Assembly (NCBI GenBank): GCA_036012755.1
Contig: DASCPX010000059.1
Location: 1 to 64,000, forward strand
Direction: 5' to 3'
Length of the DNA stretch: 64,000 nucleotides
Source of the DNA: Myxococcota bacterium
Lineage (GTDB): Bacteria > Myxococcota_A > UBA796 > CAJQPC01
A program made the position numbers. Each line of letters opens with the position of its first letter. The first letter of the stretch is position 1. Shown here piece after piece: positions 32,401-41,400 of this stretch.

Positions 32401-35400
32401 CCTCTGTGTCGACGTCGCCCGGGCCTTCCGCGTCCAGCACGGGCTCGTGGCCGACGATGAAGGCCTGGAGGCGCTGCTCGCCGATCTGACCGCGGCATAC
32501 CTCGGCTTCGGCCTCCAGGTCCTCCGGCCGCCCTTGCGCCAGCGCGAGGTCCGCGGCTTCCTCCTCCAGACCAAGGCCCCCACGGCGCTCGACACGGAGT
32601 CGATCGCTTTTCTGGTCGGCGCCCAGCTGGCCGCCCGGGATCCCAGCGAGCGCCAGCTCGAGCGCCTCCTCGGCTCCTTGCCGCCGCGCCGCCATCGGCT
32701 CGTGCTGGAGGCGATGACCTGGTTTCATGGCGAGGGGCGGGCGTCGCTGTCGGCGCTGCTCCATGACGACGAGCCGATCGGTCGGGTCGTCCAGATCAGC
32801 GGTGGCCGGCCGGTTGGTCGGGTCTCGGTCAGCCATGGCGTGGCTGGAGTGGTCGCGGGGGCGCTCTTCGGTCTGGCGCTCGGGCTCGTGGGCCTCGCGG
32901 CCCTCGGCGAGGCCCGCAGCCTCCTTCTGATCCCCCCGTTGGCGCTGCTCGGCGGCTTGGTGGGCTGGTCTCTCCGCGGCGGTCGGTGTTCCAGCTGCCG
33001 CGCGCAGATCGGGGACCAGGACGTGCTCTGTCCGGGCTGCGGCGGCCTTGTGACCGATTGAGCTCAGCCGCCCCAGAACAACTGCAACAGGGCTGAGTCG
33101 GGCCAGGCGACCCGAAGCATGGCGAGGACCACCTGCCAGGCGATGACACCGATGGAGATGACCAACAGCCCGGCTCCGACGCGCAGCCGAGGTGCCCAGC
33201 GGGAAGGTGGTTCGGGCTTCGGCCAGGCTGGCTCGACTCCTGCCTCGACCATGCGGTCGTAGAGGTCCGGGTGCGGTCCCCGTCCGACCACGGCGGGGGC
33301 CCTGTTGAAGCGGTAGAGCGCCTCGAGCGCGCGAGCGTGTGTTCGACCGTTCTCGCGGTGGGCGTGGGCGTCCGCGCGCTCCTCCATGCGTCGCCGCATG
33401 CGCCCCCCGAGCGCCAGGAGCAGGATGATGACGACGGCCACGCAGAGGACGGCGGCGGGGCCCCAGGTGAGGTAGATCGGGCCGATCGCCACAATCGGCG
33501 TCAGCGCCAGCGTCGACGCGAGGCGGGCGAACAGGACGGAGCGTGGCTCGCAGAGGTGGCCCAGCTCGTGGTCCGTGATGCTGGCGAGCTCTGCGTCGTC
33601 CAGCACCTCGAGGCAGCCGCGCGTGAAGGCGATCCGACGTGCCAGCGGCAGCGCCAGGGCGTTCGCGAGCTGGTGCTCGAGGACGTGCACGCCCCGGAGC
33701 TCGATCCCGTGGGCCCTCGCACGTCCCCGCACGAGCGCCACCAGCTCCGGCGAAGCGGGCCTCGCCAGACCCATCCGCAGGGCCAGGTCCATTCCCCAGC
33801 CAAGGGACCAGCCGGAGAGCAGGGCGATCGCGACGGGCACCGCCGGAACCACCGCCTACACAGGCAACCAGCACAGCGCCAAGCCGAGGGCGAAGCAGAG
33901 CAGGATGTGGCCGAACCGGACGATCACGACGGCGGCGCGACCTCGCAGGAAGCTCCCGTGAGCGAGGCGCTCGGGCTCTGGGTGCATGGCGCGCTCGAAG
34001 CGCATCCGCAGCAGGTGCACCGGAAGGCCCGCCGCCAGGAAGCAGCGGGCGGCCGCTGGCAGCCTGGTCCCCTCCAGGCCCGCCAACAGTGGCACCACGG
34101 CCCCAGCGAAGAGAGGGAAGACCAACATCACCAACGCGCCGTCGATGCGCGCTGGCCAGGTGTGGCGCGCTCGCTCGGGCCACTCGACGTCGAGATCCTT
34201 CGGGCTGAGCAGCCAGAAGGAGACCCCACCTCCTACGAGCCCGATCAACAAGGCGACGAGGGCTTGGCTCAGGAGACTCCAGAACAGCAACTTCAGGACC
34301 CGGGGCAGTGTCGGACCCAGACAACGTCGCACGGGATCGCGTCCTTACGGATGCAGACGCTCGCGTCAGTTAGCCTCGAAGCAGCGAAGGAGAGCGCCTT
34401 GGACGAGCGGAACCTCCCGGCCGCAGACGGCCTGGCCGCACAAGCCCTCGACAACCTCGTCAACCAGTTCGCTCGCCCCCTCGACTTCCTGCGTGAGCTG
34501 GTGCAGAACTCCATCGACGCGGGCACACCTCGGGTCGAGATCTGGCTCCGCTTCGTGGCGGACGACGTGAGTCACGGCGTGCTCGAGATCCATGTGGACG
34601 ACTTCGGCGAGGGCATGGACGAGCGCATCATCGACGATCACCTGACGCGGCTGTTCTCGTCGACGAAGGAAGACGACCTGACCAAGATCGGCAAGTTCGG
34701 CATCGGCTTCACGTCGATCTTCGCGATCCAGCCGGACGCCGTGATCCTGAAGACCTCGCGCCACGGTGAGTCCTGGGAGCTGCTCTTCCATCCGGATCGG
34801 AGCTTCGACAAGGTGCGCTCCGAGCAGCTCGTCGACGGGACGAAGATCACCCTCTTCAAGCGGATGCCGAGAGCAGAGGTCGAGGGCTTCGTGCGGGACT
34901 GTCGCTGGATCCTCGGCTGGTGGTGCGAGCACAGCGACACGCCGGTGACGTTCTGGGATCGGACCGGCGACGACGAGGTCCCGGCCCAGGGCAGCGGCGT
35001 CGATCCCTTCGCAGCCTTCGCGGAGGGAGGCGCCCGCCAGCGACCCGAGGCGATCAACAAGCCCATGGACATGGTCGGCGCGACGCTGAAGCGCAGGCTC
35101 TCCGAGCGCGGGGTCGAGGCCGTCGTCGCCTACCAGCCGAGCCCCCGGTATGGCTACTACAACGGTGGCCTGACCCTAGTGAACACGCGCAATCGTGACG
35201 TGCTCGGCCCCCTGGACGAGCGCCTGGCACACCTCGGATTCAAGCTGAAGACCAACACGCTCGAGCACACGCTCACTCGTGACAACGTGCTCCAGGACGA
35301 GCACTGGCAGAAGGCGATGGAGGTGCTCCTGAGTGCCTCGGACCTGCTCCGGGCGGATCTCGTAGAGCGGGTCGAGCAGGCCCTGCGTGCCGGCGAGGAG

Positions 35401-38400: not shown

Positions 38401-41400
38401 GCCGAGCTGCGCGAAGCGAACGCCCGCGCCTCTGCCCGAGGCGGAGTGGAGGTCGCTGAACACGACACGATCCTCCTCACCCTCGCCGAGCTGCGCTGGC
38501 TGGAGCGGGACGGACCATTGACCCTGCGCTTCGACGACGATCCCAGCGTCTGGCGCTCCCTGGCCTCCAGCGAAGAGGGCTGGCTGATCCGACACGAAGT
38601 CCGCTTGCCAGGCCTGCACGGTTGGCTCGGACTGCGCCATCCATTCGACGCCACCACGGCCATCTTGGTGCGTCGTGGCGGACGCATCCTCTCCGTACCA
38701 GAGGTCGACGCGCGCATCCCCTGCCACGGGCTCCTGTACCTGGAGCGCGGCCACGCGACCCTGACCAGGGCCCAGGCGGAGCTGCTCGCATTGGAGGGGC
38801 TCCAGCTGTACCAGAAGCTCGCGGAGGGACTCCGCGGGGGCGGCTTCGGCGGGTCGGGCTCCAGCGGCGACGCTCTCGTGACGGCCCAGCGCTATGGCAC
38901 GCTCTTCGCGTGGCTCGCCTGGCGAGGTGGCCGGCAGCAGCTGGGAACGGTCCAGGAGCTGGCGCGTTCGATCCCCATCGAGGTCGACGGCGTCGTGTGG
39001 GGGACCCTCGAGGCCTGGCTTCGGAGCCCCTCCGAGGGCCGTCCCGGTCTGCCTATCGCGCTCCCCGCCCTCAGCCGGCGCTCACAGACCACCACGGCGC
39101 TCGTGCCGGAGGGCGACCTCCAGAAGCGAACACGGGCCCTGCTCACGCAGCTGGGCCGGCGCACCGACGTGCACTTCCAGACGACACGCGAGCGCTTCGG
39201 TCCGCCCGTCCGGGTGGACATGCGCTACAGCCGCTACGAGCTGCTCGTGCTGGTGTTGAACCACGGCCACCCGGTCGTCCCCCGCGCGATGAGCCCGGGC
39301 CGGGTGCAGGAGATCCTGCTGTTGGAGATCGCCCGCCTGATCGCCTGCTGGTCGAAGGAGGTCGAGGCCCCCCTCGACCTGCTCGCGATGCAGCAGATCC
39401 TGCTCGCCCAGAGGTTGAACCCGGGTTGAGCGGGCTCAGGGCCACAGGACTGTCTCTTCTAGATCTCGGCGGGTGATCTCCTACCCGTCGATGTCGACGT
39501 GGACGCCGATGCTGCCGTCGACGTTCGTGCACCTGGGGTGGGGATCGGCCAGCGAGCCTGGCGTGGTGACCCAGATCTGCTCCACTCGTGGGCCGAGGCG
39601 CTCGAGGACCTCTTCGTCCGGAGCCGAGAGATAAGCACGGTTGGCGCCGACGATTCCGTGTCGAATGTGACCATCGTCGGGAAACACCGCGTCCACCCAG
39701 GCGGAGTTCGTGCTGCTTGCGATCCCGTGGTGGCTGATGTGGGCCACGTCGACGTCGGGCAGGGCGATGCGGTTCGCCAGGAAGCTCTCCACGTCCTCTG
39801 TGTCCTTTCCGCCCCCGGTCAGATCGCCGGCGAAGAGGTAGGCGAAGTCCCCGTACCGGACCACCCCCACGAGGCTGCGCGCGTTCTCCTCGGTGATCTC
39901 GATGGTGGTCCCATCGGGGAGCACTCCGCCCGCGACGAGGACCTCGAGCGTGGCCTCGTCCCCGAGGTCGAGGACGAAGGGGAGGTCGCAGCCAGCGCTC
40001 GTGCAGAGGGCGATCTCGTCATCTGGCTCGACCCACTCGTCGGTGTCGGGCTGGACACCACCGCGCCATATGAGCGCGCCGAAGTCGCCGAGATCGCTCA
40101 GCCCGCCGACGTGGTCGGCGTGAAAGTGCGTGATCAGCGTGTAGTCCGGGGAGTCCCTTCCCGTGCGAAGCTCGAGGGCCGCACGGACCTCGTCGTCGTG
40201 GGCGTCGTTGCCGACGTCGATCAGGACGCTCGTGCCATCCGGACCGACGATCAGCGCGCTCTCTCCGGTGCTGCGCGAGCCCAGGTCGAGCTGCTCGATC
40301 AGCAGCGGAGCCTCCAGGAGCGGCCCTGGCGATGCGCAGGCGAGCAGCGAGCTGATCATCCCAGCAGGCTACCGGGCCCTGACCGGGGGTGGTTGTTCCA
40401 CGTGGAACACCCTCAGGGGAGGCCCTCGTCCTCCAGGTCCGCGTCGAGGAAGCGTAGGGTCGCCATCCTGGCGGCGAGCGGCTTGACGACATCCATCCCT
40501 CTGCGGACATCGACCAGCGCGATGTCGATGGTGGAGAAGTCCCCCCCGGCGCCTCCACCGGTCACTGCACCCAGCTCGTCCTGGCGCAGGCGGGCATCCA
40601 GCGCCTCTTCGAGCTCGTACTTGTCCCGGGTCTCGAGGCGAAGGGTCGCGAAGCGCTCGCCGTGGCGGGAGAAGCGCTCGGAGACGAACATCGGCGAGGT
40701 GCGCGCGGCCTTCCACATCGCCGGGTGCGTGGAGCGCGCGACGATGAGGTCATTCTGTGTGGCATCCTCGAGCTTCCACATCGCCGACGGGGTCTCGTCC
40801 GGAGGCCGCTCGTGGAAGGGCAGATCGGGGAGGCTCCTCAAGACTGTGTTTCGTGCGCCATGGAAGAGCACCGGGAGGGTCTCCCATGTGCGCAGTCCCT
40901 CGCTGGAGTCGGCTGGCTCGATGGCGCCGACCCAGTCGTCGAGCATGCGCTCTCCCAGCAGTCGCTCGGTCGCGACGAAGGCCGCGTCGAAGACCCCCTG
41001 GGCTGATGCCTCCGGGATGTGCCAGCGGACGCCGATCCGGTGGTCCTCTGCGGGCTCCACTCCGATCGAGGCGCCCGCCAGCTTCACCCCCACGCGGTGC
41101 TCGACGAAGTTCGCGGCGATCTCGGGCCCCGCAGGTGGACGCGCGGACGAAAAGGCCCATCCAGGCAGCTCGGGCGCTCGCTCCATCAAGGTGGCGACCA
41201 CGGCGCGCTTGCTGCGCACGGACTCCGGCGTGATGACGAGGCGGTGACCGCCGGCGCCTTCTGGGCCAGGCCCGAACTCCCACAAGAGCCCCGGCGTGAT
41301 CGGGGCCAGGTGCTCGTTCATCCAAGCGACGAGGTCCCACCGGTCATGCATGCGGAACAGCGCATCGATGCGATCGACGCGCTCCGAGAAGGCTCGCCAG

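Follow-up and report, generated by a model that had tools for sequence, protein, structure and literature searches.

Comparison with known Hsp90-like systems

Proteins of the Hsp90 family (HtpG, TRAP1, Hsp82/Hsc82, and GRP94) consist of an N-terminal, a middle, and a C-terminal domain, and carry GHKL motifs and a middle-domain arginine. The need of Hsp90 for one or two ATP sites and the role of asymmetry have been studied with engineered heterodimers. A structure of a fused TRAP1 heterodimer is available (5tth). The window analysed here (64,000 nucleotides of contig DASCPX010000059.1 of a Myxococcota bacterium) contained two adjacent genes coding for Hsp90-like proteins, referred to as the small and the large subunit (Table 1). 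The small subunit shares its predicted domain layout, GHKL motifs, and arginine with the Hsp90 family, and the swapped N-terminal strand of Hsp90 was also present in the modelled closed state of the pair. Sequence identity of the pair to Hsp90 amounted to 13-17%, and the small subunit scored far under the curated Hsp90 cut-offs (NF003555, 22.6 versus 371 bits; NF010683, 32 versus 455). PF00183 matched only one gene in the genome, on contig C16, where an ordinary HtpG is encoded. Unlike Hsp90, the pair comprises two different subunits, one of which is predicted to be ATP-dead, has a one-sided swap strand, and possesses tandem extra middle domains as well as dedicated accessory genes. The repeats of sacsin include the ATPase domain. 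The small subunit barely passed the thresholds of NF047352 (50.5 versus 50) and PF25794 (35.1 versus 32.8), a marginal match to the N-terminal ATP-binding-like domain of sacsin, but in the present pair the middle domain alone is repeated, behind a single, predicted dead ATPase domain.

According to the Tiamat preprint (10.64898/2026.09.30.754977), Tiamat (TmtA) resembles the pair in having a GHL ATPase plus transducer and a variable, repeat-rich middle region, and its Wss1-like inactive metalloprotease fold is similar to C-terminal matches of the large subunit. As described there, Tiamat is encoded by a single gene, with TPR-like repeats replacing S5 folds and with a C-terminal nuclease, whereas the repeats of the pair are middle domains. 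The small subunit had no Pfam match to DUF3684 or a PD-(D/E)xK nuclease, its chain ending in a CTD-like domain. The weak TmtA match of the active gene, mentioned in a preliminary description of this locus, was recovered with PADLOC and was confined to aa 11-152. The neighbouring helicases, methylases, and nucleases expected of Tiamat were not recurrent at the pair loci. The same source further describes HD or calcineurin-like phosphoesterase-Hsp90 defence proteins, in which a prokaryotic Hsp90-like ATPase is combined with variable C-terminal parts; the two proteins of the present pair begin directly with GHKL and are not preceded by an HD or phosphoesterase domain. The terms 'myxo' and 'heterodimer' were absent from the preprint. 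As proposed in the preliminary description, the module appears to be new, since no account of it was found in the largely open-access literature searched, and the supplementary GHL lists of the Tiamat preprint might include members.

Table 1. Features of the paired Hsp90-like genes and of the two accessory genes in the window
Feature	Residues	Position	Strand	Remarks
Small subunit	578 aa	34399..36135	+	Complete Hsp90-like protein
Small subunit, GHKL domain	aa ~10-190			E33, N37, D68, G70, G72, G98, G101, G103, T148
Small subunit, middle domain	aa ~222-445			Catalytic-loop R294
Small subunit, C-terminal domain	aa ~446-578			CTD-like
Large subunit	1097 aa	36136..39429	+	Directly 3' of small gene; Hsp90 fold, paralog of small subunit
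Large subunit, degenerate GHKL domain	aa 1-200	36136..36735	+	Strand aa 17-24 and E48 retained
Large subunit, first middle domain	aa ~201-430	36736..37425	+	Q290 instead of catalytic-loop Arg
Large subunit, three further putative middle-domain-like modules	aa ~431-625, ~626-800, ~801-965	37426..39030	+
Large subunit, probable C-terminal domain	aa ~990-1097	39103..39429	+	N-x-x-H-P motif
Accessory gene c1	308 aa	41462..42388	-	Soluble; no known family
Accessory gene c3	344 aa	42389..43423	-	Coiled-coil-like; no known family

A predicted active and a degenerate ATPase

The small gene starts with TTG, preceded by AAGGAG at 6 nt, and codes for a protein of Hsp90 shape, with an N-terminal, a middle, and a CTD-like C-terminal domain and every ATPase residue present, so that its motifs are intact, as previously described. 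Indeed, the glutamate, the asparagine, both aspartates, five glycines, and the threonine were retained in 223 of 223 small proteins, and the catalytic-loop arginine, R294 of the present protein being aligned with the loop arginine of HtpG, in 221 of 223. These motif counts establish a predicted complete ATP site in the small subunit. The N-terminal swap strand is missing, as seen from a gap in the alignment with HtpG, and a swap-strand-like motif occurred in just 1 of 116 small proteins. No transmembrane segments and no sigma-70 promoter were found, four terminator-like sites were seen versus 2.3 expected, and no RNA holder was among the entries listed.

A DNA clamp of the MutL, MORC, or topoisomerase type, in which repeated S5-fold domains would bind DNA, is a very improbable interpretation of these proteins, as only Hsp90-family chains aligned with the small protein past residue ~350, the net charges of the two proteins are -34 and -1, and helicases, methylases, and nucleases do not recur in the neighbourhood, as mentioned above.

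In the GHKL domain of the large subunit, the asparagine is replaced by alanine and the adenine-binding aspartate by an aromatic residue, and the glycine-rich lid is substituted. This pattern extends to the family: the Mg-binding asparagine was kept in 0 of 352 large homologs, the middle lid glycine in 4, and the catalytic-loop arginine in 29, while W, F, or Y occupied the adenine aspartate position in 335 and the phenylalanine of the N-terminal strand was found in 333. Hence, the earlier view of an Hsp90 fold devoid of the Mg-binding asparagine and the G-boxes holds. The motifs establish the large subunit as a protein of the same family origin that is predicted to have lost Mg/ATP binding. Conservation in the large protein was highest in the N-terminal (0.72) and first middle domain (0.59), compared with 0.42-0.55 in the remainder. 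Alignment of close homologs of the small and large proteins with hhalign gave E-values of 0.008-0.2 only, in the expected register.

The preliminary description had left the C-terminal ~700 residues of the large subunit without a fold; they are now attributed to middle-domain repeats and a likely Hsp90-type C-terminal domain. The tail of the present protein probably contains three extra middle-domain repeats, one of them demonstrated by sequence. The module at aa ~801-965 was identified as a middle domain from profile and structure, while the other two may be middle-domain-like judging from a recurring secondary-structure pattern only. A search seeded with the first middle domain of the large subunit yielded six extra repeats in the paralog on contig C70, seven in a 2339-aa homolog, and ten in the longest homolog, the reversed control giving none; when seeded with the middle domain of the small subunit, it yielded no significant tail domains. 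Both large proteins of the genome have one N-terminal domain per chain, the repeated unit being the middle domain. The terminal domain is probably Hsp90-CTD-like.

Pairing and distribution

Numerous myxobacteria, together with a few bacteria outside this group, carry the pair. As reported before, the genome contains a second pair on contig C70, with a small gene of ~500 aa that overlaps a 1765-aa large gene by 4 bp. Among 61 genomes of the order, the large gene was found in 26 and the small gene in 25. The small gene was located directly upstream at 31 of the 34 large-gene loci; two of the others had a C-terminal piece of the small gene at the contig end and one started at a contig edge. Among 151 genomes of the phylum, the large gene was present in 29, the small gene in 30, and both in 28, the three unshared genomes containing two weak partial matches and one broken gene.

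A scan with the small-subunit alignment revealed 464 relatives in genome contigs, of which the best 80 loci were examined, which are thus selected by the small gene. They belong to Nannocystis, Plesiocystis, Paraliomyxa, Bradymonadales, Archangiaceae, Vulcanimicrobiota, Elusimicrobia, and a few others; homolog records with names were mostly from Myxococcota. The large gene was present at 71 of these 80 loci, three were cut by contig ends, and six had room for it but none. Three further candidates were not counted among the six lone small genes, since in each case a large gene lies tail-to-tail with the small one on the opposite strand. In addition, one 2958-aa large gene is unpaired, and its genome has an unpaired small-gene match elsewhere. 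Pairing is thus not strictly obligate, as had first been claimed. The coupling of an active and a pseudo-ATPase stands, but the module is not limited to two genes: 93 of 133 gene runs consisted of one small and one large gene, with a 4-bp overlap in 57 of these pairs, but 14 (10 distinct loci) contained 2-5 large genes, up to five around a single small gene (L131), and the accessory genes c1 and c3 also belong to it. Small- and large-family distances correlated (r 0.77, 93 pairs), as expected of any co-inherited operon. No significance test is attached to the pairing and correlation counts, because kin are not independent.

A 1668-aa protein (P0078), formerly taken for a natural fusion of both genes, turned out to be a frameshift artefact. 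Residues 13-302 and 365-406 matched the small family, and residues 618-1520 the large one. Between and after the matched parts, arginine rose to 18-34% and acidic residues were mostly gone; when read in the +1 and +2 frames, the anomalous stretch agreed with an ordinary small homolog in runs of 45, 24, 19, and 18 residues. With several frameshifts, this protein provides no evidence for a complex.

An anti-phage or inter-bacterial conflict system, with the large proteins as variable sensors, the small protein as switch, and c1 or c3 as effector, could account for the patchy presence (the order and phylum counts of the large gene given above), the expansion in certain lineages (as many as 14 matches within one genome of the phylum sample), the variation in repeat number, and the weak TmtA matches on the ATPase domain. 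It would also agree with the proposal, in the Tiamat preprint (10.64898/2026.09.30.754977), that variable middle regions of GHL proteins act as sensors. This explanation is nevertheless unlikely, as PADLOC models matched just 10 of the 132 genes flanking 40 of the 80 loci, and those looked generic (e.g., WYL, sigma54-AAA, and protease), while c1, c3, and the AAA ATPase gene described below had no match; the neighbourhood thus bears no signature of a defence island. Furthermore, Pfam scans of 26 large proteins revealed no effector domains, nucleases included, except for one WD40 tail, and viral contigs carried short ATPase-domain matches only, with the large gene on 0 of 22. Finally, the composition of the pair is genome-like (GC 0.68-0.69 and GC3 0.86-0.89, with a genome mean GC of 0.684), and the distances of the pair co-vary as under vertical inheritance.

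Accessory genes

The genes c1 and c3 are located ~2 kb downstream of the pair and belong to its system, given their co-occurrence and operon context. In the order sample, c1 was found in 26 of 61 genomes, 25 of which contained the large gene, the remaining one having a partial c1 match, and c3 in 21, every one with a pair of the type found in the window. Conversely, the 35 order genomes devoid of the large gene had a partial c1 in one case and c3 in none. Of the 27 phylum genomes with c1, 25 possessed the large gene, and a c1 match was lacking in four of the phylum genomes with a large gene; one genome carried broken copies of the small gene and of c1, and no large gene was found in it. In many lineages, c1 lies in or near the operon of the pair, and in some c3, c1, the small gene, and the large gene follow one another in this order on the same strand. 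At six loci, a distinct AAA ATPase gene, absent from the present genome, lies between c1 and the pair.

Searches of c1 and c3 against Pfam, NCBIfam, PADLOC, PDB sequences, and the Atlas gave nothing useful (best score for c1, 0.78). There were 144 homologs of c1, and the 120 listed contained no Pfam domain. A relationship of c3 with TelA (PF05816) was considered but not supported: hhalign to two TelA sequences gave a probability of 1.9% (E 0.025), and TelA was not among the 25 listed of 59 families obtained with 19 c3 members.

Complex model and proposed mechanism

A model in which aa 9-445 of the small subunit were combined with aa 1-430 of the large one in the presence of ATP and Mg had a complex score of 0.67 (runs, 0.62-0.70), versus 0.01 for the best of three controls; of 157 solved complexes, 116 reached the score mark, as did 2 of 215 mismatched pairs, a calibration that is roughly applicable here. 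Contact agreement between runs was at least 68%, and the pLDDT of the partners was 76 or higher. The surest contacts, between residues 16-24 of the large subunit and residues 134-140 and 83-85 of the small one, correspond to the strand swap of closed Hsp90, and this strand contact from large to small had been predicted ahead of the model run. The conserved loop 285-288 of the large subunit lies within the modelled interface as well. The pass may mirror resemblance to solved Hsp90 dimers. Together, motif counts, tight coupling, co-occurrence, and the complex model make an active plus pseudo-ATPase module well supported.

According to a study of TRAP1 and yeast Hsp90 (PMC4381864), removal of the N-terminal strand speeds closure or hydrolysis; hence, the missing strand is no proof of a dependence of the small protein on a partner, and the role of the large subunit could be that of either a brake or an activator. 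The small protein might be a homodimeric Hsp90-like chaperone, with the large protein as a co-chaperone, brake, or scaffold that binds transiently to one N-terminal face, or as its dedicated client. Strapless Hsp90 dimers still cycle (PMC4381864), the small protein possesses a C-terminal domain itself, lone small genes exist, and with subunits of such different length a heterodimer joined at two points would be demanding in its geometry. We consider such a homodimer quite unlikely, however, as the large protein retains the swap strand and a probable C-terminal domain, and the large gene accompanied the small gene in all phylum genomes except for one with a weak distant match and one with a broken gene.

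The pair is rather likely to represent an asymmetric protein-remodelling clamp of the Hsp90 type, with a working and an ATP-dead subunit, a variable arm, and dedicated accessory proteins. The two would form a permanently asymmetric clamp with one active site. Upon ATP binding, as the model suggests, the N-terminal strand of the large subunit would pair with the lid and the unoccupied edge strand of its partner, which has no such strand of its own, so that the dead subunit would close and gate the single active site. The C-terminal domains would join both subunits as in Hsp90, and because they hold the subunits together, the extra middle-domain repeats would loop out as an arm, the length of which would set the substrate or cavity. 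One motor could acquire several specificities by exchange of its large subunit. Most speculatively, the clamp might be a dedicated protein remodeller rather than a general heat-shock chaperone, with c3 and c1 among its clients or co-factors and the AAA ATPase assisting in some lineages.

More tentatively, a modular Hsp90-derived machine of four to five components, spread over Myxococcota, Vulcanimicrobiota, and Elusimicrobia, is conceivable, consisting of a strapless motor, interchangeable dead subunits, the coiled-coil protein c3 as dedicated substrate, and c1 plus the AAA ATPase. Any of several dead subunits would turn the motor on in trans, and the middle-domain repeats of each, numbering from 1 to about 11, would form an arm that serves as a ruler or receptor; if so, this would be a natural Hsp90 with one active site and programmable specificity.

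With regard to the asymmetric clamp, a dead subunit that has been fixed by evolution and carries the swap strand would offer a natural test of half-of-sites cycling. In addition, the tandem client-binding middle domains and the presence of as many as five alternative partners in one operon hint at how the substrate range of a GHL clamp might be shifted; no description of middle-domain amplification or alternative partners in this role was found in the literature searched. As cultured hosts exist (Nannocystis, Plesiocystis, and Paraliomyxa), the system is testable.

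Copy number of the Hsp90-like pair and its accessory genes

A strong lineage expansion of the Hsp90-like pair is present in one genome of 5.5 Mb (G149; loci L055 and L056 and other contigs), which harboured 14 matches to the model of the ATP-dead large subunit and 13 to that of the small subunit, together with a single copy of the accessory gene c1. In the genome under study (G000), a second c1 homolog (L002) was located approximately 9 kb upstream of the paralogous pair on contig C70, around which no match to the coiled-coil-like accessory gene c3 was retrieved. An additional weak GHKL match (E 1.3e-8 against the small-family model) occurred on contig C107, with no large partner detected.

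Genes neighbouring c1 and the pair

In the window, c1 is followed by two genes on its own strand (Table). In several related loci, c1 is convergent with the large-subunit gene and neither of these genes lies between them. Most of the 950-aa ORF merely mirrors c3 and c1 in antisense, and an amidohydrolase gene accounts for no more than the final ~270 aa. In six loci (L131, L068, L102, L128, L144, and L152), c1 is separated from the Hsp90-like genes by a gene for an AAA ATPase of a distinct family, which displays a Walker A motif GxPGCGKT and an altered Walker B motif. This family gave zero PADLOC (defence-system model) matches and was absent from G000 when looked for.

Coordinates of features neighbouring c1 and of further homologs
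Feature	Position	Strand	Remark
349-aa gene, no family	window 40413-41462	-	1-bp overlap with c1
Metallo-beta-lactamase-fold gene, 292 aa	window 39481-40359	-	after c1
950-aa ORF	window 41615-44467	+	mainly antisense to c3 and c1
AAA ATPase	L131:1608-3182
AAA ATPase	L068:4427-5893
Second c1 homolog	G000:C70:33703-34452
Weak GHKL match	G000:C107:6135-7865
WD40-tailed large subunit	L058:653-3172
2958-aa large subunit	L063:3971-12847

Unusual large-subunit homologs

A tail of known family was found in one of the 26 large-subunit proteins scanned, namely the L058 homolog, which ends in a WD40 propeller. The 2958-aa large subunit of L063, with approximately 11 middle domains, is solitary and adjoins an IS605/TnpB gene. 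Short look-alikes of the dead N domain (255-279 aa; scores 0.97-0.98, Atlas clusters), either fragments or stand-alone proteins, occur in Vulcanimicrobiota.
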